Shown here piece after piece: positions 2 through 28,052 of a stretch of DNA of 64,000 nucleotides (positions within the stretch are counted from its first letter, which is position 1; each line of letters opens with the position of its first letter). A program made the position numbers and the translations under genes. The DNA comes from a virus, in IMG/VR virus record IMGVR_UViG_3300027741_000001. The stretch is one strand, 5' to 3'. Below the pieces are notes generated by a model. The model had not been told where the DNA came from, ran no database searches, and was given only the letters and a program-made list of their open reading frames with translations.

Positions 2-3000
2 AGCTTCTTCAAAGCAACCAAAACCTGTGCCGGGAATAGAAAGTACCTGCTCAACAGGAATAATAGTTCCCATAAACATTCCGGCTCTTTCTTGCAACCT
101 ACTAGTAGCAAAGTTGAAAGCATCACCGTGAAGCCAGGCCCAAGCTGACATAGGTCTTTGCAATATTTCAGCATCTCCTATGCCATTATACTCAATACCG
201 GTATCTATTTTAAAAGCTTCTTCGTCTACTCCAGTACCTCTGTAAAGAGTTAAGTATTTTATTCCATAGTTTTTAAATCGATCCTGGGTAAGATCGTACA
301 TAGTTTTTAAGAAATCTTTAAGAACAGAACTGTGGATTCCATAGTAGTATTCTGCATTTTCTAAAATATCTTTTGTATACTGGGCGTTTTTACTTTGAAC
401 TTTCCATGGGGCCCACGAACCAGCAGGCATTTTAAATGTCTCAGCAGCAGCAATCTGTAAAGCGTGAGATAGCATATCACTACCATTAGATGTCTCTGCC
501 CACTGCGCAACAAGTATTGAAGCGGCTTTTTCTTTAAATGCCTCTATGTCTTCCGGATTGTCAAAGAAAATTGGTTTTTTATTTTCATTTGCATAGTAAT
601 CGTCAAAAAGAGTTTTATAGTCAATAGTTTTTTCATCGTAAGGGTTTCCGTACAGTTCTTCATCGTAAGGATCCATGAAATCTAGTACTTCTCTTAGAGT
701 TTCTATATGTAATCCTTCATATGGAGAGTGCTCAGAGTCATCAATAAATAATATAATAGAATTTCCATTTAAATTATCCGATTTACTATCTAAAGCTTTT
801 AGAGCCATCTTTTGACTATCTAGATAACTCAACCTAGATCTGACTACCTGACTGATAGATATGGCATGATCCAATGCTCCCAAAATATCTTTGGGAGAGG
901 ATAACATATTATTACCTATATTTTTAGCGGCAATCTCTTTTAATTGCTCAGAGGCTCCGCCCATATGTCCAATTGAGCTATCTATATCAAAAGCATCCGG
1001 ATCGTACCACGTAGCAATCTCATTAAGTCCAGTCTCTTCATTCTCAGCCATAAGCTCATTTAAAAGATCAGACTGTATTTTAAGTACGTCTGTAAATCCA
1101 GGTACATCCTTTGGATCCAAATTGATTCTAGGGTATAAAAGATCTTCGTCATTAAATAGGTGGTATGGATTTATAAGTGATCCATCCTTAACATTCTTGA
1201 AGTTTTCTAGACTTCCATCCTTATTTAGAACTACATCTCCGACTCCTCCGGATCTTTCCATTGTAGTTGGATTTTTAAAGTCCACAGTGCTAACGCCAAC
1301 TACAACAGGCACATACTCTCTTCCAGCTATACGTGCAGCTTCAACCCTATGATTTCCTTCTGCAATAAAAGCTCTTCCAGTAAGAGGGTTGTACCAAACT
1401 AGTACCGGCTCTAAGTAGCCAGTTCCGTCTTCGAGGTCATGGGCTATAGAAGATGTACTGCTCTCCATATCTGCAAGATTGCCTTTCATTGTGGCAAGCT
1501 TTTCAGTTCTAACATAACCCAGTGGATTACCGCCATTACCTATTCCATATATTTTTACACCTTTGCCAGTCCATTCAGTAAGGTCTAGGTCTGGGTCATT
1601 CTTGTCTCTATAGGAGTTATTTAGAGGAATTACTTCAAGATATTTATTAAGAATAGTAGGCTCTTCAACATTTTCTCTATTTTGATTAGGTCCATAGTCA
1701 ATTTCATCGCCATCAAGCTTAGGCTCTTCTACAGGAAGACCCTTCTCCTTAAGAAGATCAATCTGTAGTTGCTTAGATTCTAAAGAATCGTGTACGTCTG
1801 GTTTTCCAGCATCCACCGAGTTAGAAAAAGCTTTACCGTACATGGTAAGAGTGCTTGAGTGGTTAACAGGTTTACTGTAGTGCTTACGAGCTACATACAA
1901 CATTGCTGTTGCAAGACCGCGGCGTCTATATTCATCATTGGTAAGTACTAAACCAATTTTAGCAGCAGCATTAGGATCTTTTTTGTCATCATCATCTACT
2001 CTTAATGAAGCTATATGAAGAAATTTTCCACCAAATGTATCTACATTTTCCATACCCTCAGGTGTAAAGTTGGGTGCTAAGAATCTACCTTCAAGATCAT
2101 GTACGGTTACCAGTACACTTTTATCGCTACTGCTGTCAGTGTTTATGTCAGTAAGGATCATATATTTTCTACCGTACTTATCAATAAATTTATCTGTGTA
2201 ACGGACAAACCCAGTAAACTTTTTAGGTTTAGATTTACCTAGAGTAACTTGATCAGCGATGGTTTCCATATTTGTTTTAGAATCTGGGTTAGCTACAGTT
2301 GTGAATTTAGTGTACTCAAATCTCCTAGAAATTTTAGCTGCACGTATTTTTGAGTCATCTCCCGAAGCTATGGCATCTTCTACATTTTTATTTTCCCAGT
2401 CCATGATTTTTTGCTGTTTTGCATTAAATGGAGTGCCGTCGGGCAGCTGAGTGTAATCATAATTATAGATAGTATCTAGATCAAGAGTACGATCATTAGG
2501 ATCAAAAGGCTCAGGCGGATACTGGTTCTCACGGTTTTGAGAAGGTTGATTATTAGATAGAGTAACCTTTGATTCATCATTTCTATGAAGATCAGGGTTA
2601 GGGTCAACTGAAAGAGAGAATGCTCTACCAAAAGAGGTTAACATTTCTGAGTGCTGGACTTCTTTTCCAGAACGCTCTCTTGCTAAGTGAAGAGCTGCAG
2701 TAGCTAGACCTCTTCTTACATATCTATCTGAAGTGTAGACCATGCTAATTTTGTTATTAAAGACATCTAATGAAGACACAGGAGTTCTATCTTCTGAATT
2801 ATCTTGAAGATCTTGTAGGGAGTTTTTACTCTTATCGTAAAGCTTTACGTTTGACATGCCGAGGCCGTTTACTACCTTGGTAACTACCCAGTACTGTCTG
2901 CCGTACTTGTCAGTAAACTCATCAATATACTGAGTACTCTGCTTGTACTCTGGTGGTAGATCTGCATAAGGTTTACCGGCACCGCTGTAGTTCATTCTAG

Positions 3001-6000
3001 AAGTATTGTCATCTAGAAGTCCCACCTGATCTTTAATACTTTCAAGATTAGTGCCAGACTTTAAGTTTGGTTTAGCGGTGTATCCCTGATAGATACGTCT
3101 TCTTTCAGCAATACGCAGTTTTCTTTCAAAATCATCAGGTTCATTGTCAATCGCATCTTTAAGAATATCCATTTGTTGCTGTTGATAAACATTGAATGGG
3201 GTACCATCAGGCATTTGAGTATAATCGTAGTTGTAATACTTCTCTAAATCAATAGTGGGATCTGTAGGATCAAAAGGTTCTTTCTTGGCTTTGTTTCTCT
3301 TGAAAAATCCTTCACGGTTTTGAGATGGTGCATTGTCTTCCTGTAGTTTTATAGACTTCTCGTTATTGTGCAGATCAGGCTTACCAGGGTCAATGCTGTT
3401 AGAGAAAGCAAATCCCATGCTAGAAAGATTATCTGAGTGAATTACTGGAAGTCCTAATCTCTTTTCTAGAACAGCAACCAATGCTGTTGCTATGCCTCTT
3501 CTTTGGTATCTATCGGTAACCATTACACTTTGGATTTCAGACACAGATGGGTCTCTAAATATGTAGGAATCGAGTCCTCCGACATCATTAATTCCAGACA
3601 CAGGTTGATCTTTTCTTACATAATCTTCAGGTAGAGGCATACCTTCAAAGTTTTTTTGGTCGTAGGCTACTACAGTCTGACGTCCAGAGCTTTCGTCTAT
3701 GTTAGTAACTATGTAGTATTTTCTACCATATTTATCGGTAAACTTATCCACATATCTTGTGTAAGTTAGTCCACGAGCTTCATCAAAATACTTTACAGCT
3801 GGCTTATCGCTAAACTCTACCTGTTTAAGAATGCTATCTCTTGTAGTAGAAGAGCCTTTGGTAGGCTTAGCAATTATTTGCTGATATAAAGTTCTTCTAA
3901 AGTTTTTTAAATTCTTTACAGCAAAAGAGTTAGCATCTTCATCATTATTTTTAAGAATGTTTTCTAATCTTTTAGCTATTGCATCCATCTGCTGCTGCTG
4001 ATCACTATTAAAAGGAGTGCCATCAGGCATCTTGGTATAGTCATAGTTGTAATACTCATCTAAATCTGCTTTTTTATCTCTAGGATCAAAAGGCTCTGGA
4101 AGGTACTTAGACTCTTCTTCCTTAGGAGCAGACTCTATTTTTTCAAAGTGCTTGTCAGCAGCTGGCCATAGATTGCGTAGCATTTCTTCAGGCATACCTT
4201 GAGCAGTAGGCTTAGTCATAAAGTCTGAGAGCTGGTCTCTACTAGTGAACATTCTCAAGAAATCGTCAACGTTGGTAGAAAGATCCCAGCTGCTCTGTTT
4301 AATCCAATCTGCATTTTCATCGCTGTTATCGATGTTTATAGGTTTTTCAGCACGTTCTCTATTTTGAGAAGGCTTGCTTTGTTCTTGAATTACTGTCTGT
4401 CCGCTTACTGGATCGTTAGATACAATTTGATTTCTTTCGGCTTCTTCTTTAATTGCCGCTTCTAGATCGCTATTATCTCTATTTCCAGGATATGAGTGAT
4501 ATGAGAACAAAGCTTCTTTTATGTCCCCGCCTAAAACAACAACTTCACGTTCATCCATAGATCCAAACCCAGATCCAGAAAATGATATAACTTTATCGGC
4601 CGGAACTATTGTAGCCATAACTACTGCATTTTTACCTGGCGAGTTCATTGCAAAACTCTCTGCTTTATATCTATTAGTTGACCATGAAGATAGTGGCCTC
4701 TGCTGTACAGTGCCTGAAAATACTCCAGTAGACCCTAAATTATTATAAATTTCATTTAGTTCTGTAGAGTCAGATCCCCTATACACAATAAACCCATCAA
4801 TACCCTGATCCTTCAGCAGATCTTGAGTAGCGTTATACATTGCATGTAAGAACTGTGTATAAATAAGTCTGTGATCTTTAACTTCTTGATCAACCTGATC
4901 TTCATAGTGGTTATTTAAATCTATTAAATCTTTTACTTCATTAGGAACGGTTCCCTGCTCCCTATAGATATCTACATTGTATTGATTCATGCCTCTAACA
5001 AAGCTCCACTCGGATGTGGCTTTAGGGTCCATAGCAAATATATCTTTAGCTACTTTTTGCATAGCATGAGATTTTATGTTTTTATCATTAGAAGACAGTG
5101 CCCATGAGTGAATTAAATTAGAAATCATTATTTTCTTCAGATCATTTACATCTTCCTGATTAAAACTTGAATGTACTCTTAAAAACAATTGATCATTTAT
5201 AAACTTTATAATACTGTTTGAATCTGTATTGCCCATTTTTTCTAGAACAGAATTCATAAGTTCTTTATTTACAGTCAATATAGATATAGTTGACAGACTC
5301 TTAACTTCATTAACATTAGTGACTAAAAGTTCTGTATCTTCTTTTATATCGGATAGATCTGCATTAAAAGCGTTGTATATTGATGAAGATGCAGGGCCTG
5401 AAAGACGAGAAAAAAAGGCCTCTTTTGCTATACCGTTGTAGTTCATGTAATGCACATCCATGCGGCTAGATGCATTAAATAGTGGAGAATATCCACCGCT
5501 CATAGCAGCTTTAAGCAAATCATCAAATCTAGCATCTGGCATATACCTAAGAAGTCTTGCAGCTGCAACTTGCTTAAGCAGGATAGATTGAGAAAACTCA
5601 GACGTTGAGCTAAACAGATCGGATATAGAGTCGCTTGCGCTCAGATCGTCTATTTCGCCATTTCTTACAGCATCTTCTACAGCTGAAATATTTGTCTTTT
5701 GAGTAGCTGTAGTGATATTTCTTTCAGCACCCTCACGGTTTTGGTTAGGGTTAGACTTTTCTTTAGCTGATTGAACGTCACCTAGATCACGGATCTTGTC
5801 GTCATAAACGTTACGGATTTGCTCTAGGTCATTGCCACTTGTAGCGGAATCTTCGTAAAGTGAGTTTAGCTTCTTAAGCTCATTGTAAAGTTCTTTAGCT
5901 GCAGCTTTGTAGACGTTCTTGTCTGCACCAGGCTGGTTTCTAAAGTTTTCAATTGCATTTTCAAGATTGTTTTTAAAGGCACTTAGATCATTCTCTAGAT

Positions 6001-9000
6001 TTCCATTGTAAGAAGCATTTTCTATAGCTTCAGGAGCTACCGAAGTTTTAGGTAAAGCTTTACTTCTATTAGAAATAATATTTCTGATCTCATACTCATT
6101 TTGAGTGTGGAATACATTATCTAAGGAATATGACTCTTTAGAGTCGTTGATGTTTACAATTTCAGGATTTTTATTTCCATCAAGCCTGAGTTGATATCCC
6201 CACTCAATAAAGTCTGTTTTATCCCTAAAAGCTGTAGGATTAGGCTTTTTAAATACTTGTAGCGTTATCTTTTTAAGATTTCCATCACTATCAACAACAA
6301 CTAGATCATCTCCCTTGTTGATTATTTTACCGTCGGCACCCCTGTGTATAGGGTTAACCTCGGCACCATTACCTGAAGAGTAATTATCTATATATTTTTC
6401 AAAATTATCTAAATAATCTGTACTAGACATTATCTTTTTAAAAGCTATTTCTAGATCTACATAACGAATAAAGTCATCTATATCTTCAGGGTTTAAAATC
6501 TTTGCTAGCTGATTAACCTTATCGTTTGCATCTTTTTTAGCAGCATCAGGATCTTCAGTTCTTTTACTTCTGTGGATGAAATCATAGACTTTTTTAATAG
6601 CATTGAACAGTCTGTAACCGTCTTCACGAGAGATCTTGTCTGGAGTCTCTTCCGAGGTAGGCTCTTTTACAACTTCTGGCTTAGGCTCAACCGGTTTAGC
6701 CTTAATAGCTTTTTCAATATCTTTTTTGTCTTTAGGGCTAAAAGCATTGAGCTTAGTAAGCATATTGAAGTTATATGTAGTTTCTTTCCCGTTAGGACCT
6801 CTTACGGTTAGCTGAACAACTCTACCTAGAGTATCTTTCTTAACTACAACTCCAAGAGCATAACCATCTGGACCATAGATAGTCCACCCAACGTCTACTT
6901 TTTCTGCTAGATATTGCTTAGCTGTTTCCTTGGTTATTTGAGTTGGGCCAAGATCTTTAGGAGTTTCTACTGAAGTTACAGGAGTCGCGACAGGTTTTTC
7001 CGGCTTCTCTTCAACGGGCTCTTCTGGCTTTTCTTCAGCAGATTTAGCAGTTTCTGCCTCTGCCTTAGCTTTCTCATCCCACTTTCTCTGTACTTCAGCC
7101 ATCTTAGCTTCTTGAACTGGAGCAGTAGCGTCTTCATCCATTTTTGGATCAGTGCTGGTTGGCTTGAAAGCATCGTAGATCATTTTAGGGACGTCAATCA
7201 TGCCGCCTTTTTCATCTACGTAAAGGAAGTACTTAATAGGCCCCCAGATATTTTCTGATTGACCTTTGACAAAGTCGACGTCTTTAAGATTTTGACTCTT
7301 GCGCCTACCAATAGCAAATCTGCTGTAAAGTTCACGGTAGGTCATTACTTCGCCATTCCAGCGAACTTTTTTGTCTAGGTGGGCTTTAATTTTACCTAAT
7401 TGCATTGGAGATAGAGCATCAAAGTCTAGAACTCCGCCAGCGGTCTCAATAACATTTTTCTTAGGCTCTTCTGTAGGCTCAGCTGCTGGCTCTTCTACAA
7501 CTTCAGGCTCATTTACAACTTCTTCAACGTCAGACTCAGAGATGCCATCTTCTACTTCTATATCCCTAAAGAGGTTGTCAAAGTTGAAGTCTAGAGGATC
7601 GGTTGGTTTGCCGGCACCTTCCTTCATACCCTTATTAGTTAGTACATTGAGCTGCTTCATTGCATCGACAAGTTCAGCTATTCTCTTAGCAATAGCTTTT
7701 TTCTCATTTTCATCTGTTGAAGAACTTCTAGTGTTGTTTAAAATATCCTTATAATCGCTAAGTTTTTCATGCAACATTACAACAGGATACGGGCTAAGCT
7801 CTTGCTTCAAACGCTTAGCTTCGCGTTTCATGTTCTTGCCTCGTTTAGCGGCTAGATACTTTCTGTAAAGCTGGCCAACTTCAGTCCAAGCATCTATATT
7901 AGCCTGACGTTCTTCCTCGGTAAGTTCCTTAGGTTCTTCTTCTACCTTAGTTTCGGCTACAGGTTCAGTAGCAGGCTTAACGTTCTGGTTCTCGTCAGAG
8001 TAGCGAGCTAGGCCGGTTATTCCACCAAACTTAGCCAAAAACTCTTCATCATTAACAAAGACATTATCGTAATACCCGCCCTGTGCACGGTTAGGTTCTT
8101 TAATTTCAAAAACTCTATTTCCGTTTTCATCGGTCTTAACGGATACAACTTGTGCATAGAAGTTAGGACTAGTTTCTTCGCTTTTAGTTCCCTTCCATCT
8201 AGTAGTTGGAGGGAAGTGCCCACCATACATTAGGTAGTCGCCAGATTGAATTTGATCTAAAGATTCTAAAGGAATGTATTCGGATGTGTAAGGGTTGTTA
8301 TTTCCACCATTTTCAGCTATTGCATTAGCCACCATTTTTCTGGCTTCTTCTACAGCTTTTTTCCAAACTTCCGGATCATTAATATCTCCTGGAACCTCGG
8401 CATTTCTATAGTCAATAAGTCTACGTCTAGACATATCTTCTCGCCATTTGTTATTTAATAAGCTTATTCTCCAACCAGCAACTCTTCCCTTTTTGTTGTA
8501 GCTATTAGGCTCGATCGCTTCTTCGTAATAGATCTCTGCTCCATAGCGAAGTCCATCTTTTGCACGAACGTCGGGATAGTCTGCTTCGTGCTGGAATCCT
8601 TCTCCATTTATTACATATTTAGCGTAAGGTTCTCCCGCACCTGCGGGGAACATTTGAACATCATCCGGTAGAGGGAAGTTATGCTCGCCAGTTATTTCTT
8701 TTGATTCGGTTGTAGGAGTGGTTTCTTCTTCAACAGGCTGTTCTTTTTCATCCTCATCATTTAATTTAAAGAATTTAAAACCATACTTATTTTCTAGTTC
8801 TTTTTCATTATCAAGTCTTCTTTGAAGTTCTTCTTTAGCTAGATTTTCATCTTTATAAGCATCTATCATATCCCCAATGTGCGCTGCACTTCTTTCAGAT
8901 GACCCTAGCATAATTTCATATTCGCCCCAGTTAGTTTGCTTAACAAAGTATTTTCCAACTAGATCTTTAAACTCAGGATCCATATCACCCTCTAGACCAA

Positions 9001-12000
9001 CATCTAGAGTTACTTTTTCTATTTTTCCGCGATTAATTAGATATATAGTATCTCCACGCTTTGGCTTATGGCCATCAGCTGTAACACCTTCAGTAGCATC
9101 TCTACGTGCAGGATCTTTCCAAATCTGATATTGCTGAGCTAACCACTGCTTAGCTTTTGCTATAAGTTCAGGATCTTTATAGTACCCATAAAGATCTGCC
9201 CCTCTCCAATAACCGTCTTTGTCTTGGAATTTTACAGAGATGTGATCTCTAGGGTAGTCAGTACTTCCCCAGTATCTAATCTCTCCCCAGAATTCAGCAC
9301 CTTTCTTTGGAACTGCCATATTTCCGCTACCATTGCGAGGCCTAGCCATATTCCAACCAAGAGCAATTTGACCATACTTATCTTTTTCCCAGTCAGCTGC
9401 AACATCTTGTAGATCTACAAAACTGTCATCAATTTTTTCTGGCTCGTTGGCAGGAGTAGGTGCGGCAGCTGGAGCATTTATGTTTCTATATCTCTTAGCA
9501 AGTTCAACGTAAGATTGATTTATAAGATTCTCTAGAGCTGACTTGTCATTCTCATCGCCATCAACTTCAAAAGTTGCAACTACGTTACCCTTTGGATCTA
9601 GAATGGTGGCGGTCCACTTACCATCCTTGTTAGATATGACAGCTCCAAATGGAGGTTTTTTCAGCCGATCTATTTTTTCAGTTTTAGCTGCTTTCCATTT
9701 TCCAGTCTTAGGATCTTTTAGAGCTCTCCAAATGTAGTCATCTCCAACTTTTCTAAAGAAGTGCGGGAATGTGCCTGGAAGTTCACCGTTGTTATATTCT
9801 TCATTTCTTCTTGCAAGAGCTTTTGTAGCGAACTCAAATGCTTTTCTAAAAGTTTCTTCCTCGCTACGTTCTAATTCAAAATCTAATAATTCTGCAGGAC
9901 CGTAACCATCTCCATCGATGGTGCCGTCCCAGTTTCGCCACTGAATTTCTGTGTATTTTTGATCTAGAGATCCATCAGCTTTTCTTGTAAAAGTAATCTT
10001 TATACGAGCCCCTGGAGCGCTAAAGTCTTTGTTGTGCCAAATAACTACTGCTTTTTTACCAGCAGCAAATTTTGAAGGATCTTCGTAAGGTAATGCACCT
10101 TCTTCTCCTTCTTCGCCATCCTCTTCGCGGTTTTGAGAAGGCTTGTCGCGGTTGTCTTGCTCTTCGATCTCAAAGCCCTTTTCAATAAGCTTTTTCTCGT
10201 CGATTTCAGCAGGGAATTCTGGCTTAGGATGTACCATCGGCACATAGCCTTTTTCTGCATAGCCCTTAGGGTCAATCTTTCCCTTGCCGATAGGGTCTTC
10301 TCTTGTTACTTCTGGTTCTGGAGTTTCGGTAGATTCTTTTTTACCAAGGTTAGCGTCAATAATGTCTTGTACAGCTTTAACAACTTCATCCCAGTTTCCT
10401 CTTAGGCTACTTCCTTCACGTTTTTCGACATGCTTGATTTCACCAGGTTTTAGATTTTTATCTAAAAGGTCTAGAAGTTCTTCGTAATCAATACCTTCTT
10501 TTCTTCCATAACCATGCACATCCAGGTATGGAGCTAAGATATCTTTTATAAGACCTCCCACTACATCGGTTTTTTCACCTAGTGGGTCTACAGCTTCAAT
10601 TCTTTCTTTTAAAAGTTCTTTTATGCGATCAAGAGCATCGAGTTGTCTTTTCCTGTAACCTGGATCTAAGAATTCTTTTACTTCATCTAAAACTTGCTTT
10701 AATTTATCTGAATACATGCCTTCATGTACTGCTCCAAGGTTTTCTTTTAGATGCCTAATTAGTCCTTTATAATCTTTAATGTCTAGCTTTATAATTTCTT
10801 GTACAATTTCATACGCCTCTTGAGCGATTTGATCAGCCCTTTGCTTTGGATCCTGATTAGGATCAATTCTTTTGCCAAGGTTTATTGCTATCCTAAGGAC
10901 AGCTTCAATGATTGATTCATAAAGAAGTTTTCTTTCTGGACCGTATATTTCAGTAGTAGATTCAGCTGGGGTCTTGACTCCATTTAAGAAGTCTTTTGCA
11001 TGAGCAATTATGGAATACTGGTCACCGTTTCCAGGCAAAATCTTCTCATTTAAATACTCCGCTAATCTCTGATATTTAGATACAGGTACGCCTAAATTAT
11101 GAATTTCTTCAATAATTTCATCAACTTCAAGTCGTATTTTATCCTCAAGTTCAAGGTCAAAATCCTCCCAGCGGCCACTAGATTTATATAAAGCATTACG
11201 GATCGCGGCCCTCAATAAAATAATAAAAACTTCATCAAATGAATCGTTATTTCTGCGTCTACCTCCACCACCACCGCCGCCATTACCGCCACGTCCACCT
11301 CTACCGCCGCCGTTACCTTCTCCGCCTCTGTTGTTACCATTGCCACTACCCTCTCCACCCTGATTCTCATTTTCAGGTGTAGGTGCAGGAACGTTTGACT
11401 TAGAAGAAGTTAGTACTTTTTTGAAGGTTCCAACTGGAACAACTTCGTGCTTGACTTCACCGTCTTTGCCTACATAAACAACAACTCGGTCACTAGACTT
11501 TTTAACATCAGGAACGCCGATGCCATGCTCAAAAACGTTTACAACGTTAGCTGGGCCATCCGGACTTTCGTAAACCATTCCAGGTTTGAGATCTTCAGCC
11601 TTTACTGCATCTGCGTTAGAAGAATCAAGTTTTCCTGGCAAAGGATAAATAAAGTCTGGACCGTCGCCAGGTACAAAGTTAGCTCCTGCTTTAGTAACAT
11701 AAATTATTCCATTTTTGTGTACAACATACTCATCTAAACCTTTTGGAAATACATCTCCAGGTTTATAATCTTTACCTTCTACCCAGTAGTGCCAGTTCCC
11801 GTGTCTATCTTGACGTATTACTACAACTTTACCGTGAAGATTTCCATCCTTGTCATATACAATATCTCCAGGTTTGACATCTTCAGGCTTCTTTACATCT
11901 GGAGTTCTAGCTTTTCCGCCTCGTGGAGTAGTAGTTTTTTTACCTTTACCTTTTTCTTCTTTTTTAGGGGGGTTTACTCTTTCAGAGTTTGCAGTCCAAT

Positions 12001-14914: not shown

Positions 14915-15117
14915 TATTCTCCGCCATCCTTAAGGATGTCTACCCCGATTAAACGTTGCAGCTCCTCATTGGCGGCTTTAGAGCCTTCTAAAGTTAGGTT
15001 TACTAGTTGCTCGATTGAAAGAGATGAGTATGGCACTTTTTTAACAACGTGCTCATCATTTCTATAAGACTCTACGGTAAGCATAGGCTCGGCCTTAGAC
15101 TTTTTATTTTCGTCCAT
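14914..15117 (-). CDS. Small hypothetical protein, translationally coupled to giant ORF 2
   Basis: ORF track; TAG/GTG overlap; AGGA upstream. Confidence 0.75.
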   Translation of the reverse strand: MDENKKSKAEPMLTVESYRNDEHVVKKVPYSSLSIEQLVNLTLEGSKAANEELQRLIGVDILKDGGE

Positions 15118-15134
15118 TTATATATCCTACGTAG

Positions 15135-15287
15135 TTATTCTGACGGAGTGTTTTTAGGAGTAGGCTCTGCTACATCCTCTTCACCACTATCATATAGGAA
15201 ATCTGGATCGGGGTTTGGGAAAGAGATAGCAGTCCAATACTCTTCATCTTCAGGAGTATAGTGATCAGGGTTTAAATAATTTTCCAT
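15135..15287 (-). CDS. 50-aa acidic hypothetical protein (MENYLNPDHY...)
   Basis: Manual translation; GAGGAG RBS and TGGTATACT -10-like element upstream. Confidence 0.65.
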   Translation of the reverse strand: MENYLNPDHYTPEDEEYWTAISFPNPDPDFLYDSGEEDVAEPTPKNTPSE

Positions 15288-15355
15288 GTAAATACTCCTC
15301 GAAATAGTTAATAAGTCTGTAAATAGTATACCAAAGTATCTGAATAAAGACTTAA

Positions 15356-18300
15356 TTAACCACCAAGAAGTGCTTTAAGTTGATTAAGAATATTGACTCT
15401 ATCCTCAGGATCAGCTAGACTAATGCTCCAGTTGTTTGCTTTTCTATCCCAGAAGAATGAGAATGGGATCTTCTTATCTTTAGGTACTAGTGAAACACTC
15501 TTGATTAGATCTTTAGCAGCCATAGTATCACCCATCAGGAAGATTCTATTACCTTCGATTCGATAGTTGACACCGCCTCCAAGACCTCCAGAAGATCCAT
15601 CTTCACCAGTTACTGGCTCAATTGGCATGGAGGTAGCTCCAGGCTGATTAGTTGGATCATACTCTTCATCTGGGTTATCTTCATAGTAGCCAGCTAGGAT
15701 GTAGTCAACTGCCTTGCTTGCCATAGAAGCGGCCTCAAACAAAGCGTTTGGCTCTGTTTCCAAGAATCTCTTCCAAGACTGAACATAAGCAGCCACGTTT
15801 TCAATACTGGTGTTGATCCCAAACATAGAAGCTAAAATAGCTGCTCCAATTTCTGCAATAAGTTCTTCACGAGCACGGACATCCTTGTGCTTACCGTAGT
15901 TATCTAGAAGATCTTTACGATCTAGACGCTGAGGGTCTCCAGTACTGTGGACCAGCTCGTGGAACAAAGTATCTAGGTGCTCTTCAGTGCTATTGAACTG
16001 TTCTCTTAGAGGCAAGCTGACTGTGTCCGTCTGAGGTGACCAGAAAGCTGAGTCTCCAGGGGCATATTGGATGTTAGGCCCGCCTGTGTAGGAAGCAAGG
16101 ATGATATCCTCTACCTCGTGCATAGGAGGTGGGTCTTTTCTAGGAAGTGGTGGAATAGTAATACCCTTAACCACATCTTCGTTATAGACAACATCAATGT
16201 CGAGTCTAGTCTTGGTTCTAGAACCATCATCCGGCTTCTGGTCACCAGTCTTTGGGTCAATGATAGTTTTGGTCTCATCTGGCTTTACAGTGTACTTACT
16301 CTTCACAACCTTGGTTATAAGCACGCCATCGTTTTCGTCTACGTAGCCACCAAGCTTAGCAATAGCGTTCTTTGTATACCAGCGAGTACCTTTGTAGCCT
16401 CTGAATTGGCTTAGAACTTCTAGAATAACTAGGTTTCCACCCTTGTAGTTCTTACCAGTAGCGCCTGATGTAGGTAGGTAAGATCCACCGCCAGTCCAAG
16501 GCTTCTTCCAAGGAATAATTCCCTTATCCATAGCCTCGGTAATTTGAGCCATAACCTGATCTACAGCATCTTTATTGCTCTTTATAGGTTTGCTATTTTC
16601 GCGGTTTTGAGAAGGACCGTTGTCTTCTAGGTCTTTCCAACCAAAAATTGCCTCGGAAGCTCCAAAGATTCCAGATTTATTTGCCACTTCAGAGACCTTC
16701 ACGAACTTGTCACCATTTTCGTCAGTGTAAAGTTCTACTCTCTTATTTGGCAAAGCTGATCTGAGTTGAGCCACGTACTCTTCCGGATCTAGTCCATTAG
16801 GAATAGGGTCAAGAACAGGAGTCTCGATCTCGGCTGTCATTCTTTCAGCAGCGTGAACTGCCTCTGTGAGTTCCTTTAGACCGCGTTCTCCGCCAGGATA
16901 TTGAGGATCTCTAGAGATAGGCTCAAGAGACATCTGGTAATCGTACTCAGCTTGAATAGCTTCGTCATAGGCTGCATTAATCTCTTCTTCAGACATTACT
17001 GGCTGCTCAGATGCAGATTTATTAGGAGTTGAATCTGAATCTGATTCAATAGCTTTTGCAACTATATCTAAGCTAGACTCTTTGACGTTTTCTGGATCTG
17101 ACTTAGCATCTATGCTATTATCCCCTTGGAAAATAGTAGTTCCGTTTTTACGAACTTGGATAGCATCATTAGAGATAGTAGCTTCATACTTGCCATCAGG
17201 AGAACTCCAAGTGTGCTTGTAGTCATTTCCTTCAGGTCCACCTAGATATTCGGTATTCCAGTTAGCAGTGTAGTCATACTTACTGTCAGGGTTGGTAGCA
17301 CCTTCACGGTTTTGAGACGGGCCTCCGATAACCTTTTTAGCCTGCTGGCCATTAACATATGATGCACCGCCACCGCCATCAATAGCTTCAAAGAATACGC
17401 TAACTTCATCGGAATCGTGACGACTTATCATCTTGATTCTCTTGTTTCCCTTAGCAGTAACTACAGTGTCACCCTTTTGTAGAGTATTAGGGTCTACTTC
17501 TACAATTTCAGGTCCTGAGCTTTCAGTATTCTGTGAAGTAGGTTGATCAGGGCTCTTATCAGACCTAGCTTCTAGCTGGCGTAGGTAATCCTTACGCTTT
17601 GACTTGAATTCTTCTATCTTACCATCTAGCCAATCCAACATTCCAGGATCTAATTCATCCATAGTTCTAGTTACAGCAACGTACATAAGGTTCAATGCTT
17701 CTGTAGTAAGAGATCTAGGCATATTGCCCTTCTCGATAGCGTCAGCATCTTTTTGTGGGTTAGGCTTGAACCATGTTCCTGAAAGTTTAACTTGTTTAGC
17801 TTCTAGTCCCTTGGCTCGGTGAGCAGTTAGAACTACGCTGTCGACATCTGCACCACTTAGAGCGTCTACAAGAGCGCTTAGTTGCTCAGATCCATTTCCT
17901 TGAACAGGAGTGGTCCAGTCCCAAGTCTTACCTGTATCCCATGTGTATCCCATTGAAGATAGAGTGTCAGAGTTATTCTTAGTTCCATTATTTGGATTCT
18001 TTAGCTCAGGTGTCCAAGGCTTTGCATCACCAGTATTGTAGAGACGGATAGCCCCATTTTCAATCTTGTAGCTAATGAAGTTTCCAAGATCTCCTTCGTC
18101 GCCCCAGTTGCCATCCGAAGGCTTTTTGAATCCTTGAATACCAATGATTCTTGCACCATCTACTGTCCGCTTTAGTTCAGCAAATACTGCCTTGCCATCG
18201 TTATCTCTTTCTTGCTCTTCTAGACGAGCTTGAGTCAGCTCCATAATGCCTAGCAATCTTCCTACTGCTGGATCAGAATCTTCTTGGTGAAGTTCAAGCA

Positions 18301-21300
18301 TTTGCTTCCAGCTGTCGTAGGAGTCTAAGTCCTCATGCGCATTTGATGGGCGATACTTAGGATTAGCACCAAAAAATAGCCACTTAGCTGTAGCCAAGAA
18401 ACTATTCATTTCAGCTTTAAATTCCCTAATAACACCAGCACGTTGACCTCTACCAACCATAGTCATAATTTCTAGTAGAGCATCAGCGTTGGTTGTGGTA
18501 AGAATCATGTCTGCATCTGTCATACTTCCAGGAGTTGCAAGACTTGAAGTCTTATTTGGATTTCCGACTAGACGTTCGTCATCCTCGTCCTTAATCTCCA
18601 AAACCTGGTTAGCAAAATCAGCAACATCCTGTCCGGCACGGAACATCATGGTTAGAGGTAGGGTTACCATTCTTCTAAACATATTTAGGCTGTTGACGGC
18701 TCCACGGAACTGATAGATAGATTGGTGAGGATCTCCAACAACAACAAGCTGTATGCCATTGTTGTGTAGAGTCTCTTGCTCATCCATAAGTCTAAAGAAT
18801 ACTCCGTTAACGTCCTGAGCCTCATCAATCAGAATAATGTCTGGGATTGCACCAAGACCGTGGGCGCTTTCTCCCTTAGAGTTAACTTCTTTTAGATTAG
18901 GGTGGCTAAGAGCAAAGTTCTTCATCATATCGTTGAAAGTTACAGGAATCTGACGAACGCTGTCATCGTGCGGCTCTAGTTTTTCTTTCCATATTTTCTG
19001 AGCTAGCTCTAGGAAGAATGGGGTATAAGCCTCAGGGCCTCCTATTTTTTCTCCAATTGCATCGTCGAAGTGTTTTCTTTCAATCATGTCATCTGCACTA
19101 ATAGTCCAGTTGTTTAGACCCTTAAGTGTAATTTTTACTGCTAAGAACTTAGAAATTCTTTTTCCATTACCTAGCTCTACTTCGTTTGGAATCTTGAAGT
19201 AATCAGCTATATCTAAAAAGCCATTGATCGGTCTATTTTTTGCATCCGACTGCTTCTTCATAGCAATAAACTTCTTAGAAAGTTTGCTATTTACAGGAGC
19301 TTTGAAAGATACAGAGTCCATAGTTCTAATTTCAGTATTTCCAGGGAACTTAAGTCTGTTCTCATCTGCAATAGCTTTGTTGAAAGCCATAGCAAGAATT
19401 CTCTTCTTAGGGAAGTAGTGAAGTATTGCCTTTGCAAGACCGATCAAGGTAGTAGTTTTACCTGTACCGGCTAGAGCCTTGATAACAACTGACCATCCAC
19501 GAATACCAGCTTCAATAGCGTCTTTCTGCTGATCGGTGTACTCTTTATCCAAGAATTCAATATCGTGTCTACCTGTAGCCAGCTCAGCCTTGTTCTTGGT
19601 ATCTTCAGGACGTTCTCTATTTTGAGATGGGGCATCGATAACATCTTGAGCTGCTTGCTCTAGTTTCTTAATAGCAGAGTTGATAGCACGCTTTTCTGCT
19701 GGACTACTAGTAGAGCTTAAAGCATCTTGCAAATTAGTCATAGCATATGAGAGCCGAGACAAAGTACTCTGCTGATTCACGCCTTCGCGAAGTTGACTAG
19801 GGCCACTCTTTTTGTGACGGTCAGGATATTTCTCATCTAGGTAAGCATTTAACTTATCTAGGTCATATCCAGTAGGGACTCGTAAGCCATCAACGTCTAG
19901 GTTGTTAGCAATGGCGTAGTCAAGTTCTAGACCGTCCATTTCCTTAACTAGATCACCGATTTCGTTAGAGTTGACATTTGGAAGCAACTTCCAGATCTCT
20001 TCTCTACGTTCCGCAGATACTATGTCTCTAGGATCCAATAGACGTCTTTCAACGCTCTTCAACTGCTTAGGGCTTGGTTTTCTGATCTTATTTAGTGGAT
20101 CATCAATAACGTTGCTTTCAGTAAGAGGTTGTTCACCATCGTCTGGCTTTGGAGGAAATAAGCTTGAGAAAGTAGGACGATCGTTTGTAGGAGTTCCTTC
20201 TGGAGATGTAGAGTTAAGAGCATTTCTTGCTTCTTGCTCTAGATCCTTAGGATCTGGTTCGTCTCCTCTAGCAGCTCTTTCAACAGCTCTATCAGCTATA
20301 AATTTTAAAGCACGTTCGACAAATGCTTCGTATCCTGGAATATACTTAGCAAGTTTTGCATCATAGTCATTATCTGAAGCATCGAGATCAAAGATATTGT
20401 CTTTAATCAAATCGGTTCCAGACTTAGCTCTCTTAAGCATCTGCCCTAGAAGTTTGACGTTAAGTTCTAGATCATTAGCTGCATTATGTAATGAATTACT
20501 AGGAATACCTTCGTATCTTCCTAAAGCTTCTAGAGCGGTAGAACCATGTATACCAAAGTCTCCTACCTTATATGGACCACCAAGGTTAGTTTTTTTGTTA
20601 AATACATTGTAAATGTGATCAGCTAGTCCAAGCGTGTCAATCATTCCAGCAGGAGAATATTCTGCTAGTCCAGCTTCTTTAAGAGTTCTATTTAGGACTT
20701 CTAAATCGTAATCAGCAACGTTGTGACCAGCTAAAACTGCGTCTGGTCCTAGAAATTCTAAAGCCTTAGCAATAACTTCACTCTTGGTTGGGAGACTTGC
20801 AATCCACTCAGGAGTTACTCGATTGCCTTTGTCATCCTTTATATTTGCCATAGACCATGAACTTAAAGGAGATCCAGGATTCATGTAGCTTATAAACTTA
20901 TCAACGATTTCTCCGTTTACAACTTTATATATAGCAATCTGAATTGGATCGTTTTTAACATGAGGCTGTAAAGGGTCAAAGATACCGGTAGTTTCAAAAT
21001 CAATAAAGTGTAGAACTTTATCTCTCAAAGCTTCAGTTACATCATCCCAGTTCTTTGCTCCAGCCATCCAGTCGCGAACAACGCCCCAGAAAGCCTTAGG
21101 TTTAACTCTTGCAGGAGGTCTAGGCTTATTTGGGTGGTTAGAGTAGTCAATGATTCCAGGAACTGGATCGGTGTCAACTGGGATCTCTGGAGATTCAACA
21201 GGATTTGGCTCAAATACCTCTGCTGATGTGCTGTGGTCTACTTCATCTTCTAGAGATGGGTCGTAATCATTTTCGAATGGACTATTGTGGTATCCATCTC

Positions 21301-24300
21301 TACCCATAACAGAGCCGACTTCAGCTGCAAGTTTTTCAAGAGTCTCTACGGTCTTAGGCTTTTTATTCTTAAGACGTCCGTAGGTGTGAGCATTATCTGA
21401 GTCAGTTAGACCCTTCTTAATAGTCTCTAGACGTTCCATAACCTTAGCAGGTTTGATTACGTACTTTCTACGTAGGTCAAGCATACGCTTAAGATCCCTG
21501 ATGTCGTCGACTGCTCCGTCGATGATTCTTCTACCATCGGCATTTACAAGATCTCTGTGATTAGCAACAAAAGCTGCTAAACGAGTCAGAGCGTAGCGAG
21601 ATCTACGAGCAGCATTCTTACGAGCTTGTCTATTAACATATTGCTTTACTTCTTCTTGATCTTTTTCTTCAGCAAGAATCTCTTTACGAGCTTCATCGGT
21701 TGGCTTGTAGTCTTCCCAGCCTTCAGGGGCATTAGGTCTGCCAATAAGATCCATCAGGTTTAGGTCATTAATAGACGCTCCGCCTTCAATGGCTTTCTTT
21801 ATTAGAATACTGTCGTGAGCATCTTCACGAGCTTTAAGTTCAGAGATGATTTGAGTACTTACCTCGTATACGTTCATCCTAGGAACGGCTTTGACAATTG
21901 CAGCAATTTCTCTGTCGCTTGCTAATCCCTTGTCAAAGATACGTTCGATGCTGGCAAGCATTCTGTCAGATGCACCGTCAAAATCTCTAGCAACTAGCCC
22001 GTACTTGTTCTTAGGCTTGTACTGCTCTTTGAATGGATGCTCCTTGAATGTGTAATACCATTCACGGATCTCGCGAGCATTCATGTCTTTGTAGTTGTCC
22101 ATAAACTCTTGGACTAAATCTTGAGGAATATCTCTATCCTCTAAGAATCTTTCAATACCAACAAGTTGGCCATCGCTAGGGCCCATAGCTTCTTGAGGAA
22201 CGTTGCTGCTAAGGTACTTAGGACTTTCAGTAGGCTGATCTGCTAGCCAGTAGTCAGGCTTACCGTTTACAGTGTTCTCGGCTGCTCTAAGTTTTTCTAA
22301 TTCAGCTATTTCTTCTGGAGTAGGTTCTGGAGCCTGAGGTGGTTTAAAAGGTAGACTATAAGCTTTTTCGTGAAGTTGATCGTACTCTGCCCTGGTTAGG
22401 GTGTTGTCATCGATCTTTTTTCTGATCTCTTCTGCTTCTTGTTTACTCCAGTTTTTGTTATCTAAAGCCCAATTTAGGAATGATTTTTGAAGCCATGAAG
22501 CCATGCCTTTTTCAGGTGAGGTAAGTTCACGGAAGTTCTTTTCAATATACGCTGCAAGATCATTTACTTCTTTTACAGTGTGCTCTTCAGGATTCTTTCT
22601 GATCGCTCTAACTTTATCCCAAAGCTCTGGCTCATCTTGAACGTATCTAGAGTTTAGGATTGCAACTAGACGACGGACCTGACCCTCGTTAGGAATGAAG
22701 TCATCATTAACTCTGTTTTGAGAAGGACCTAAATCTGTATTCTTTGCTTCTTTAGAATTTACATATTTTGTTAAAGCTGAGTGCAGTCTAGATACATAGT
22801 AGGTGTCATCGTTAAACTTGTTTGGCTCATCTTCGGATGCAACATGCATCTCGTAGTATATTTCTGCAACAGCTTTTCGAGTTTTTTCTGCACTTCTACC
22901 GTTAGTAATATCGAAATCTTTAAACTCCGAGTACAAACTGAATCTATGTAGATTATCTGGAAGTTTAAACCAGTCTCTAAGAGCTTGAGTAAGAACCTCA
23001 TTTTCATCTTCACCAGGATAGATAGGGTGTGTCTTTAGAGGACCCATGCGTTTATCTACAATTTGAACGCTTCTTAGGTTATCTCCAGAATCAACAATTC
23101 TGGCAGAAATATCAGATCTTGAACCCTGTCCAGCCCAAAAACCATTGTCATTAAACTTTGGAGTGGTAAAGTCTCCAGGATAAGTGTCCTGTAGGAACTG
23201 TGCAATGATTGCATCAGCTTTCTTGATCATGTCAGAACCTGGGCCGAAGTAATCGTACTGGAAACGTTCTGATGGGTCTAGCTTAGAATACATCTCTCTT
23301 TGGTAGTCCGGAACGTTGGCAATGTTAGGGTTAAACAGCGGGTCTAAAGCTTCTAGATATTTAATAGCATGGACCTGGTCTTCAACCTGCTCCCAGTTAA
23401 AGAATGGAACCTGAGTGTCCATAGTGAAGTCACTATTGCCGTCACGTTCGGTTAGGGTATACACACCGTCAGACATAATTGGTTGGAATGAAACGTCTCC
23501 AGTTCTTTGGTCATACACCAAAGCAACGTCTGATTGACCATATCCGTAAGTTACGCGGAATCTGCGATCTTTAGATAAGTATGTGTTGTCTCCAATTTTG
23601 TTCCAGCCTTCTGGCATGGAACCATCTGGATCATTTTCGTTTTTGCCAGTAGATTCTGGCTTAGGCTCTTCTTCTGGAGTTTCTCGGTTTTGACTAGGAA
23701 CAACTGCTTCTACAGCAGGTTTTTCTTCAGGAGTTAGATCCTGGTTATCTTTATCTCCGAAACGATCATCTTCATCTCCAGCAATCTTCTGTACGCCAGC
23801 CCAGTCTTGTGCAAAACCAATAGGGCTTTTATTTCCCTTAGCACGCTTTGAACCCCAAACAGTAATAACTGGCTTAGTCATGTCTAGGTTTTCAGTACCA
23901 TCGGTGCCTACTATTTCTAGGCTATCGCCATACGCTTCTTTAGCTTTTTCTACAAAACTTTCAGTAACTTTATTAGGCTTATTTACCACAGAAGCGGTGT
24001 AGCCATCAGCTGAATCGTAGACTGCGTCAGAGTGAAGTTCATTACCGGTAAAAGTTGAACTAGTCGGAGTATACGGACTCTTTACCCAGCCTTCTGGCAT
24101 ATCAGCAACAACAAGATCTTTAATATCAACAATGTCGTTATCATTTGGAACCGCTTTTCCAACTGGAAGATCTTTAACTGCTTCGGCAGGTAGAATAGCT
24201 GCAACGGCTTCAAAAGCTGACGCTGGAATTTTGTAAAGTCCATTTTTTAAACCCGGAATATCTGTAATTTCAAAGTCTATGTAGCCACCATTTTCAGAGT

Positions 24301-26246: not shown

Positions 26247-28052
26247 TTATTGTTGAGGGGTTGTTGTTGGTTCGGCTAGCTGAATCGGTGGGGCCGCTTC
26301 TGCTGGTTGAGCCGCTTCAGGAGCGGCAGGGGCTGCTTCAGGTGCCCCTGTAGGGGCTTCTGCGCCCGGTTGGACGCCTTGAAGCATTTGAGAGACATCC
26401 TGAGGCATTGGAGCAACGCTGGAGGCCTGTTGAGCCTCTCTAGCCTTTGCCATCATCTCTGGTGCCACTGCCGAAAGCAAAGCTTCCGTCAATTCTGGTG
26501 TAATTACACCCTTTTCGACCAAAAGACGTAGTCCGAGCTCCGTTGGGCCAGGTGCATCTTGGTCGGTGAAGCCGTGTGCACGTCTCCATGTGTCGTAAGA
26601 CACTGCCATCTTGTCAAAACCAGAGTCAGCATCCAATGCACGGTCATTACGGGTCGCTACAGCACTTGGATCGTACCAAATTACTACTCTTTCAACGTCT
26701 GCAGGGTTATAGCCGTTGGCTAGAAGGTAAGGACGTAGGTAAACAACAGTAAAAGCGTCTGCCATAAGCAACATTAGAGGTTCAATGTGTGCTTTGTAAA
26801 GACTTTCGTCAATTTGTACCGCATTTGAGTACTTTACGTTGGCTAGACCGGTAACAATGTCCTTAGGGACGTCGATTCCCTGCAAAATACGCTCCAAAAC
26901 GCGGTCAGAACGCTCTGCAAGGGCTGGATCGAAGCTACGCTCGAACTTGAACTGCTTGATCTTGTCACCAAGGTCTGCTGGGCCACGAATAATTAGTGGA
27001 ACTACCGCGCTGGCTGAATCTTCATCGCGAATCGGGGTTGTCATCGCGTCAATTAGCTGATCCTCGAACTCATCTTGCAATTCTTCGGGGGTTGGATCAG
27101 AATAAAGACCGTCAGCGTCCTCGTAAGGGTAGTTTGGGTCAGGTGTAGAGGCTACAGATAGGCCATCCGGTAGATAGAGCGCACCAGCGTTCAGACGGGA
27201 ACGCGCCGTTGCACGGAATGTGCGGTTTAGAAGTAGCAATTCGGCACATAGATCAAGCATTCCCTTTAAACTGGAATCAGCTTCGTCAGAAAAACGTGGG
27301 TGAGCCCTCCAAATACGTCCAACGAACGCGTTTGGAGCAAGTTTGATAATATTTTTGTTGGTAGAAGACATTGGAGAGTTACCTTGATTGTAATCTCTAC
27401 GTCCAGCAATCAAATAATTGCCTTTTCCGTCAACGCTGAGCTCGTCTACAGATCGGATATCCCAGGACTCTGGAACGTTTGAGCCAACACGGGCAGGAGA
27501 CTGGACCAAATAGCATTCTCCGGTAACTGCAAGATTCAAAGCACAATCACGAAGAAGACCGGCCTGGCCTCCGTATGCTGAGTCTAAACGTGCAAGGGCA
27601 CGTTCTGCAGCGGAAGCTAGGTCTGCTGAAAGATTGTCTGCTAAACGTACAGGAACTGGAGCTTCAGCAGGGTCTTGAATAACAGCTGCATAAAGACGGA
27701 TACGAGAAACAACGCTAGAAACTAGGTTGAAAGCGTATTTGATCTCGCCAATTGCATCATAGTACTCCCAAGCGTCTGACTGCCAGCTAGAAGATGTTGA
27801 AGTTCTGCGACTACGGAAGCGTTCTGCTTCTCCACGGTCATTAAGTGGGACCTGAACTGCAGCTGCAGTAAGTGGACGTATAGAAGAGTATGGAGCTGAC
27901 TGAACAGGGGCATAGTTAGGGTTTAGAAAAACTGAGTTAGACGGGAGACCAGTTGGGTTGGTAGTTGCACGCTGGTTGGCAGAGGTTGCTCGAATGCCTG
28001 GACGTGACTGTTTAGGATTTTTATCATCCTGGTTACGGCTAAAGATGCCCAA
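26247..28052 (-). CDS. Portal protein (actinophage type)
   Basis: WQxxAWEYYDAIGE..Y...SRIRLY, WRAHP, RSRL..G motifs; 601 aa; downstream of terminase. Confidence 0.88.
   Translation of the reverse strand: MGIFSRNQDDKNPKQSRPGIRATSANQRATTNPTGLPSNSVFLNPNYAPVQSAPYSSIRPLTAAAVQVPLNDRGEAERFRSRRTSTSSSWQSDAWEYYDAIGEIKYAFNLVSSVVSRIRLYAAVIQDPAEAPVPVRLADNLSADLASAAERALARLDSAYGGQAGLLRDCALNLAVTGECYLVQSPARVGSNVPESWDIRSVDELSVDGKGNYLIAGRRDYNQGNSPMSSTNKNIIKLAPNAFVGRIWRAHPRFSDEADSSLKGMLDLCAELLLLNRTFRATARSRLNAGALYLPDGLSVASTPDPNYPYEDADGLYSDPTPEELQDEFEDQLIDAMTTPIRDEDSASAVVPLIIRGPADLGDKIKQFKFERSFDPALAERSDRVLERILQGIDVPKDIVTGLANVKYSNAVQIDESLYKAHIEPLMLLMADAFTVVYLRPYLLANGYNPADVERVVIWYDPSAVATRNDRALDADSGFDKMAVSYDTWRRAHGFTDQDAPGPTELGLRLLVEKGVITPELTEALLSAVAPEMMAKAREAQQASSVAPMPQDVSQMLQGVQPGAEAPTGAPEAAPAAPEAAQPAEAAPPIQLAEPTTTPQQ

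Follow-up and report, generated by a model that had tools for sequence, protein, structure and literature searches.

Introduction

In picornaviruses and potyviruses, polyproteins are processed by proteases (3C and NIa/TEV, respectively) that form part of the same polyprotein and that recognize a long peptide found at each junction, with the protease and its sites co-evolving. In the secreted MARTX toxins, a giant chain of effectors is released by an internal cysteine protease that cuts unstructured inter-domain linkers, the site being a single Leu context. In phage T4, the prohead protease gp21 has the consensus L/I-x-E, while encapsulin cargo-loading peptides and the T4 capsid-targeting sequence are cargo signals of the docking type. 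The prohead proteases gp245 of SPN3US and gp175 of phiKZ cut packaged or ejection proteins after A-x-E (PMC10052503). Polyvalent proteins of phages and conjugative elements were defined by Iyer et al. (2017; PMC5512222), who proposed that these are processed by their embedded MPTase zincins, before or after packaging or else after injection. Whether giant virion multi-enzyme proteins remain whole or are cut, and by what, is an open question. Considered here is a 64,000-nucleotide window (bases 32014-96013 within the 113,694-bp contig of a lake-water actinobacterial phage, IMG/VR record IMGVR_UViG_3300027741_000001), in which two giant open reading frames (ORFs), ORF1 and ORF2, repeatedly encode the peptide P[SNA]QNR[EV], and which makes that question concretely testable.

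ORF1 (15356..25054, minus strand) encodes a giant polyvalent protein of 3232 amino acids (aa). ORF2, encoding the second giant, crosses the window edge, such that the window part (2..14914, minus strand) corresponds to aa 1-4971 of a protein that comprises 6018 aa in the full contig (genome 28871-46927). Together, the two ORFs span 27.7 kb, a quarter of the genome, with the unprocessed products of ORF1 and ORF2 being of ~350 and ~670 kDa, respectively. For comparison, IMG/VR was scanned with the portal and the protease domain, yielding 160 loci, and the whole head gene block was rebuilt for five relatives, termed G1 to G5.

Results

Recurrence of the Motif

In-frame copies of P[SNA]QNR[EV] were found 12 times on the minus strand of the window, each where an earlier reading made from the letters of this DNA alone (the sequence-only reading) had placed it, with two more lying in ORF2 beyond the window edge (aa 5039 and 5425), for a total of 14. 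Five copies belong to ORF1, namely PSQNRE at aa 453-458 (23681..23698), 1809-1814 (19613..19630), 2579-2584 (17303..17320) and 2814-2819 (16598..16615), and PSQNRV at aa 777-782 (22709..22726). The seven copies in the window part of ORF2 are PAQNRE at aa 251-256 (14147..14164), PSQNRE at aa 1592-1597 (10124..10141), 3515-3520 (4355..4372), 3863-3868 (3311..3328) and 4124-4129 (2528..2545), and PNQNRE at aa 3056-3061 (5732..5749) and 4409-4414 (1673..1690). Two sequence variants in ORF1 that had also been pointed out, PSQLRE at aa 1752-1757 (19784..19801) and PTSQNTE at aa 2505-2511 (17522..17542), are likewise present on the minus strand.

Every QNR tripeptide in the two giants lies inside a copy of the motif, with the counts expected from composition being ~0.009 for P[SNA]QNR and ~0.87 for QNR. 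When the sequences were shuffled 500 times, no 5-mer appeared more than four times; PSQNR was observed 11 times. A six-frame scan of the whole genome revealed P.QNR in no other ORF, the sole extra match falling in a 57-codon stop-to-stop frame. The motif is thus confined to the two giants encoded between the portal and prohead-protease genes, as the sequence-only reading had anticipated.

Across the copies, Arg is encoded by CGA, AGA, CGT, CGC or AGG, Ser by TCT, AGT, TCA or AGC, and Pro by CCT, CCA or CCG, while the mean pairwise nucleotide identity among copies (0.77) is as expected for a shared peptide. At orthologous sites in the clade of relatives sharing this motif (the QNR clade), synonymous CAA/CAG differences are seen, including those relative to the near-identical G5. 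The variation in codons between copies, on which the same conclusion had earlier been based, and that between orthologous sites point to purifying selection acting on the peptide and not on the DNA. A DNA-level repeat or a recombination site is ruled out by the codon variation, the 0.77 identity and the CAA/CAG differences. All 14 copies in this phage use CAA for Gln (p ~5e-4), but a constraint behind this codon was not sustained, given the 8 CAA:4 CAG ratio in G5.

Domains and Module Borders

Searches against Pfam, PHROGs and PDB sequences revealed DEDDh, UvrD-like helicase, ArdC-N (PF08401, E 4.6e-16) and MPTase (PF18818, E 4e-28) domains in ORF1, while ORF2 contains a DEDDh domain, weak GNAT matches and HExxH modules, one with a HELGH zincin signature at aa 873-877 (12284..12298, minus strand) and another with HEIAH. 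A PDB sequence search of ORF2 returned no matches. Of the domain labels assigned in the sequence-only reading, these therefore stood, with GNAT remaining weak, whereas the ART and ParB labels found no support in Pfam (E up to 0.5, single segments). Judged by these matches, both giants qualify as polyvalent proteins as defined by Iyer et al. (2017), with 2 to 15 or more unrelated effector or conflict domains in a single polypeptide, as had been recognized earlier; the hallmark MPTase and ArdC-N domains are those of ORF1.

The motifs split the giants into ~16 modules of 235-1464 aa, six in ORF1 and ten in ORF2. Several of the motif-bounded pieces correspond to complete enzymes, namely the DEDDh exonuclease, the UvrD-like helicase, the ArdC unit and the GNAT-like units. 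The helicase unit (ORF1 aa 1827-2483; 17606..19576, minus strand; phrog_1967 match) is bracketed by the copies at aa 1809 and 2579, the former lying 13 residues ahead of the start of the match and the latter past its end. The copy at aa 2814 directly precedes the ArdC-like unit (15725..16573, minus strand), comprising ArdC-N (aa 2828-2935) and an MPTase zincin with the sequence HELVH (aa 2994-3110). Residues 7-284 of ArdC in PDB entry 6i89 align to ORF1 2828-3119 (E 2.7e-26), and ~100 free-standing ArdC homologues (~300 aa) start 2-6 residues past E2819, the final residue of that motif. In ORF2, the copy at aa 251 separates the N-terminal module from the DEDDh exonuclease that follows, and that at aa 3863 is flanked by GNAT-like repeats. 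The copies at aa 1592, 4124 and 4409 were placed by sequence and by alignment to relatives, that at aa 3515 by sequence and a module swap in relatives, and the PSQLRE variant by sequence. Homologues of ORF2 3450-4480 sought among proteins of 567-1805 aa amounted to a single protein, too few for a deep alignment.

Models were generated with AlphaFold2, with confidence expressed as the predicted local distance difference test (pLDDT). In the model of ORF1 2480-3232 (87-row alignment; mean pLDDT 76.7), both copies of the motif and the PTSQNTE variant fall in or beside stretches with pLDDT <50, between modules at 75-98. PTSQNTE is found in such a stretch at model residues 21-40, while the copy at aa 2579 (model residues 100-105) lies within that of residues 81-110. 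The copy at aa 2814 (model residues 335-340) lies partly within residues 312-338 (pLDDT <50), with the mean pLDDT being 44 for residues 331-340. In the model of ORF1 1-470 (37 rows), the first copy lies in a disordered stretch (residues 439-470; pLDDT <50) that follows a two-domain N-terminal module. In addition, the motif flanks are less hydrophobic than the background in six of six lineages tested (hydrophobic fraction, p <0.0002 to 0.011). The models, the ends of the ArdC unit and the hydrophilic flanks all place the motif in linkers at predicted module borders, in support of what the sequence-only reading had claimed.

Comparison with relatives revealed further border-like behavior. In the alignment, ORF1 reaches its natural C-terminus at exactly the position where the first giant of G1 contains GGGGPSPKQE and one more module. 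Likewise, close relatives P0153 and P0157 carry an unrelated module in place of ORF2 aa 3056-3520 (window 4355-5749), with the edges of the replacement lying right after one ...QNRE and right before the next ...SQNRE.

Motif Types in Related Phages

Each rebuilt relative presents a recurrent peptide of its own, found in the giants only. This corresponds to PxQNRE in G5, GPSPK[EQK]E in G1 (6+13 copies), G[FY]xQxxG in G2 (18+5 copies) and in G3 (24 copies in a fused giant) and [DE]EDLG in G4 (9+4 copies). GFxQGER and GFxQxAG were detected in database giants, ID[KR]MAP in L022, P0008 and L111, LPxGY in L114 (nine copies) and IMDPP in L171 and L174. The sequence-only reading had expected P.QNRE, in this genome and in relatives, only in virion cargo proteins; restriction to the giants held, with G5 sharing the P.QNRE type and G1 to G4 using different peptides. 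In the rebuilt relatives, the portal, the capsid protein, the protease protein and the ~385-aa protein encoded after the portal (which was not detected in G4) carry no copy of the lineage motif; across six lineages, the same holds for the protease protein and the capsid protein, including the conserved, scaffold-like N-terminal region of the latter. With the strict pattern, no motif was detected at the fusion point of the single G3 giant. In two cultured relatives, Actinomycetia phage DSL-LC01 and Microbacterium phage Pumpernickel, giant ORFs follow the portal gene but contain neither QNRE nor a strong recurrent motif. Recurrences of the 'RDADG' type in DSL-LC01 and L065 were not counted, as these look like parts of beta-rich domains and not like linkers.

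Different peptides occupy the same junctions. The first giants of this phage and of G1 share 62% identity, and the alignment columns of PSQNRE and GPSPKxE coincide at five of six sites in giant 1, including the PSQNRV copy at aa 777, which aligns with GPSPKEE, and at ~9 sites in giant 2. The two peptides share the frame G-P-S-x-x-x-E. Moreover, a 1229-aa block of ORF2 is 74% identical to that of another relative, L105, with four junctions reading PSQNRE here and GPSPKEE in L105. Apparent relics persist in this phage, such as ESAPKEE where G1 has GPSPKEE, while L107, which mixes GPSQKEE and GPSPKEE, looks like an intermediate. Within the six giants of the QNR clade, the motif is 98% conserved, as compared to 83% for the flanks. 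On the basis of these alignments, the motif is best described as one allele of a lineage-specific junction code that is changed in concert at orthologous junctions.

Co-variation of the Motif with Candidate Readers

Phages may share 86-93% identity in the capsid and protease proteins and yet differ in motif type, rendering a conserved structural protein unlikely as the reader of the motif. For the protease protein, identity between QNR and PKE phages amounts to 82-86%, and to 89-93% in the catalytic domain (G0 vs. G1). The most informative case is the phage represented by L105 (contig G006), where 20 of 20 junctions read GPSPKEE. Despite this, nearly all of its modules, including the N-terminal modules, helicase and ArdC/MPTase unit, as well as its protease protein, are closer to those of the PSQNRE phage considered here than to those of G1, with identities of 87% vs. 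71% for the ArdC/MPTase unit and of 86% vs. 81% for the protease protein; the capsid protein is also 88% identical to that of this phage. By contrast, G1-like sequence is limited to the terminal zincin of the L105 phage (41% identity, vs. 34% to this phage) and one further module of unknown function.

This terminal zincin corresponds to the last module of ORF2 (aa 5431-6018; L001:4-1767, outside the window), in which HEVWH is followed by EH. Across relatives, the invariant elements are HE[VIF][WA]H and an EH pair 12 residues downstream, and the module is found only in lineages of the GPS type. Identity of the module is 85-97% within the QNR type (74-97% among the six giants of the QNR clade) and 36-40% between types, as compared to 80-95% for the capsid and protease proteins. 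The type of zincin follows the type of motif in six lineages, although not in P0156, considered below.

The sequence-only reading had named the embedded zincins or the prohead protease as possible cutters. Of these, neither the ArdC-type MPTase (HELVH) nor the prohead protease co-varies with the motif type in the sequences compared, whereas another embedded zincin, the HEVWH module, tracks it better. Given the discordance in the L105 phage, where the MPTase and the protease are like those of this phage and the terminal zincin is G1-like, the terminal zincin of ORF2 is the leading candidate for such a cutter. Prediction of a complex between this module and the 41-aa linker upstream gave no verdict and counts neither way. 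An ESM Atlas feature search with the terminal zincin yielded only sub-threshold leads (0.82: DdrB-like, ATLF and LPD5), which were not used.

The Head Gene Block and the N-Terminal Module

The portal is 72% identical to that of Actinomycetia phage DSL-LC01, which comes from a lake metagenome, with a more remote relationship to those of Microbacterium, Arthrobacter and Gordonia phages. Read along the minus strand, the block of head genes comprises, in order, those encoding the large terminase (window 31046-32443), the portal (26247..28052), at which the cargo block has its upstream limit, a 385-aa protein (window 25072-26229), ORF1, ORF2, a 1506-aa protease protein (L003:8561-13081; prohead-protease domain at aa 770-1190, with phrog_18402 and phrog_3244 matches and a weak match to Pfam S78) and a 682-aa major capsid protein (L003:6369-8417). 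The order of portal, giant 1, giant 2, a protease protein of ~1500 aa and capsid protein is kept in all five rebuilt relatives, with the two giants fused into one in G3, and the ~385-aa protein follows the portal in four of the five.

The 385-aa protein is ferritin-like (PF00210, E 1e-14; also DUF5824) and carries no junction motif. Since ferritin-like proteins are classic encapsulin cargo, it is possibly another packaged protein. In the capsid protein, a helical N-terminal region that is conserved is followed by a long stretch of low complexity, acidic and rich in Pro and Glu (~120-150 aa in this phage and of differing length among lineages), and then by an HK97-type body. In many relatives, the protease protein contains 4-5 strings resembling L-x-A-S-A (e.g., LEASASEAV and LRASAPSGD), and VDASAS is found in the capsid protein after the acidic linker. 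As assemblin enzymes cut A|S, such strings could be a real prohead-protease consensus or could simply be part of the fold.

The N-terminal module of giant 1 (aa 1-438; 23741..25054, minus strand), made up of a helical and a beta-rich domain, is the best-conserved part of this protein across the family (30-40% identity). ORF1 202-358 is homologous to ORF2 19-203, so that both giants open with a related module before the first junction. A Foldseek search of the module fold against the PDB gave no match at E <=0.001, and Pfam returned nothing. The conservation would fit a possible role in head anchoring or loading. The string IGFAQDW is found at ORF1 aa 411-417 (window 23804-23824, minus strand), and [IV]G[FY]AQ[DE]W appears in the N-terminal module of nearly all lineages; its resemblance to the GFxQ junction motif of G2 and G3 may reflect an ancestral recognition element or may be a coincidence. 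Finally, a 441-nucleotide gap without a long ORF separates ORF1 from ORF2 (window 14915-15355). In G1, the first giant runs past the equivalent point into another junction and a zincin module with HEYGH, such that a module may have been lost here, leaving the gap as its remnant.

Discussion

The reading that we favor, with a probability of about 0.4, is that the motif is the recognition site of a phage protease encoded within the giants, and that the giants are polyproteins cut into separate enzymes. According to this reading, the heptapeptide (G)-P-[SNA]-Q-N-R-E would be the junction signal between modules, its reader being a site-specific protease that the phage encodes and that co-evolves with the sites. 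Synthesis would yield two chains, each of them probably being loaded into the head by means of the shared N-terminal module, and these would then be cut into separate enzymes, perhaps after the final Glu of the motif. The candidate cutter would be the last module of ORF2, whose HEVWH and EH, found 12 residues on, are gluzincin-like. Packaging in the virion and delivery together with the DNA are suggested by the position of the two ORFs between the portal gene and those encoding the prohead protease and the capsid protein.

Several observations weigh against such processing by the terminal zincin. Many related giants and lineages present no detectable motif, such that a dedicated cutter would not be universal. 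No HExxH was found in the last ~2000 aa of giant 2 in the ID[KR]MAP, LPxGY and IMDPP lineages. The terminal module matched neither Pfam nor PDB sequences, so that its assignment as a peptidase comes from the conserved HExxH...EH alone, and its co-variation with the motif is drawn from few independent lineages. Finally, P0156 (L186:4127-14341) encodes a 3404-aa giant with eight copies of GPSPKEE and one PSQNRE directly before a terminal zincin of the QNR type, meaning that strict matching of one zincin to one motif fails there. This giant is found in an unusual upstream context, being preceded by small minus-strand genes and not by giant 1, and P0156 represents a recombinant that arose naturally or else a chimera created in assembly.

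More doubtful is the wider proposal that a family of freshwater actinobacterial phages possesses private and fast-switching protease-and-site codes for dismantling megadalton cargo polyproteins, with the 6-7-residue peptide of each lineage being read by a matching terminal zincin. Were processing by such enzymes to be real, it would represent a double-stranded DNA phage counterpart of 3C/NIa-type polyprotein processing and a natural source of orthogonal metalloproteases with long recognition sites, while the switching could avoid cross-processing in mixed infections or allow escape from host countermeasures directed at the site. The locus offers a defined peptide, ~16 predicted products with predictable ends, natural specificity-swap pairs (PSQNRE vs. 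GPSPKEE, in phages with structural proteins 86-93% identical) and, as cutters to compare, four zincins and one prohead protease. If cut, the junction peptide would also provide a rule for annotating single effector enzymes within ORFs of 3000-6800 aa, which are numerous for this phage family in lake metagenomes.

Of the other explanations, the one that survives best, albeit still unlikely, is that the motif is an uncut docking peptide, recurring along the cargo and bound by, for example, a chaperone, a module of the giants or the interior of the capsid, so as to load, order or unfold the giant chains. A short, linear motif that lies in disordered, hydrophilic linkers and that is restricted to proteins of the head gene block would suit such a function, as would lineage-specific switching, which would be expected with any co-evolving binding partner; a ferritin-like protein, moreover, is encoded next door. 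Still, one copy is found at nearly every module border and no cluster is seen at a terminus, motif-bounded pieces match the ends of natural proteins, and the possible receptors, i.e., the capsid, portal and protease proteins, do not co-vary with the motif type in the L105 phage.

Distinctly improbable is that the motif is a site cut by the prohead protease within the 1506-aa protein encoded just downstream. The domain is present in all relatives, both the QNR and the PKE motifs end in Glu, the P1 residue of enzymes of the T4/phiKZ type, and processing of ejection proteins by such enzymes is established (PMC10052503). Yet the canonical substrates, namely the capsid and the protease protein itself, contain no copy in six lineages, the distribution of the motif is patchy across lineages that without exception possess the protease, and the type of site does not follow the protease, that of the L105 phage being like that of this phage (86%) even though the motif is of the other type.

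There is little to recommend a host factor that cuts or binds the motif after delivery, freeing the enzymes inside the cell: activation after injection is among the options discussed by Iyer et al. (PMC5512222), and lineage specificity could mirror differences between hosts, but phages with structural proteins 86-93% identical, and so probably with similar hosts, differ in motif, and at least seven classes of motif within a single phage family are not easily assigned to proteases of the hosts. Equally improbable is a passive seam, i.e., a favored flexible linker that moves with shuffled modules and has no specific reader, for although the breaks of module swaps and mosaic blocks fall at the motif or close to it and P0156 mixes both types, the 18 nucleotides of the motif lack conservation at the DNA level and offer too little length for homologous recombination, and neither 98% identity over 6-7 residues amid drifting flanks nor concerted replacement at ~20 orthologous junctions in otherwise conserved blocks would be expected.

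Processing of polyvalent proteins by zincins is an idea already published (Iyer et al., 2017), while a processing-site motif is not described in that paper (PMC5512222), from which the word 'linker' is absent, in line with the statement in the sequence-only reading that no description of the motif was known to it. Beyond the consensus sites of prohead proteases, no junction motif in polyvalent or cargo proteins was found in the literature searched, a limited library that is not proof of absence. The giants resemble described polyvalent proteins in combining ArdC-N, an MPTase zincin, a helicase, DEDDh and GNAT domains in one polypeptide and in being encoded beside head-morphogenesis genes, but differ in that a heptapeptide marks the junctions and switches in concert, and in that the hallmark MPTase does not track the motif.

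The T4, phiKZ and SPN3US systems would be similar in that a short consensus with Glu as its last residue is where packaged proteins are cut, and in that N-terminal propeptides serve as targeting parts. There, a single three-residue rule applies to capsid, portal, protease and cargo alike, mostly for the removal of N-terminal propeptides, whereas the motif considered here is of 6-7 residues, is absent from the capsid and protease proteins, is found at internal junctions and differs between close relatives. The co-variation of shell and peptide that would be expected of encapsulin-type loading is not seen, the capsid protein being 88% identical to that of the L105 phage in spite of the different motif. 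As for MARTX toxins, these are secreted and not capsid-borne and use a single Leu context in place of a heptapeptide; no domain of the MARTX cysteine protease (CPD) type was found here with Pfam. Closest in working logic are the 3C/NIa polyproteins of RNA viruses, as here, too, a conserved peptide is found at the junctions of functional units, although in the present case, known from sequence alone, these belong to a tailed phage with a double-stranded DNA genome, and the candidate enzyme is a zincin rather than a protease of the chymotrypsin fold.

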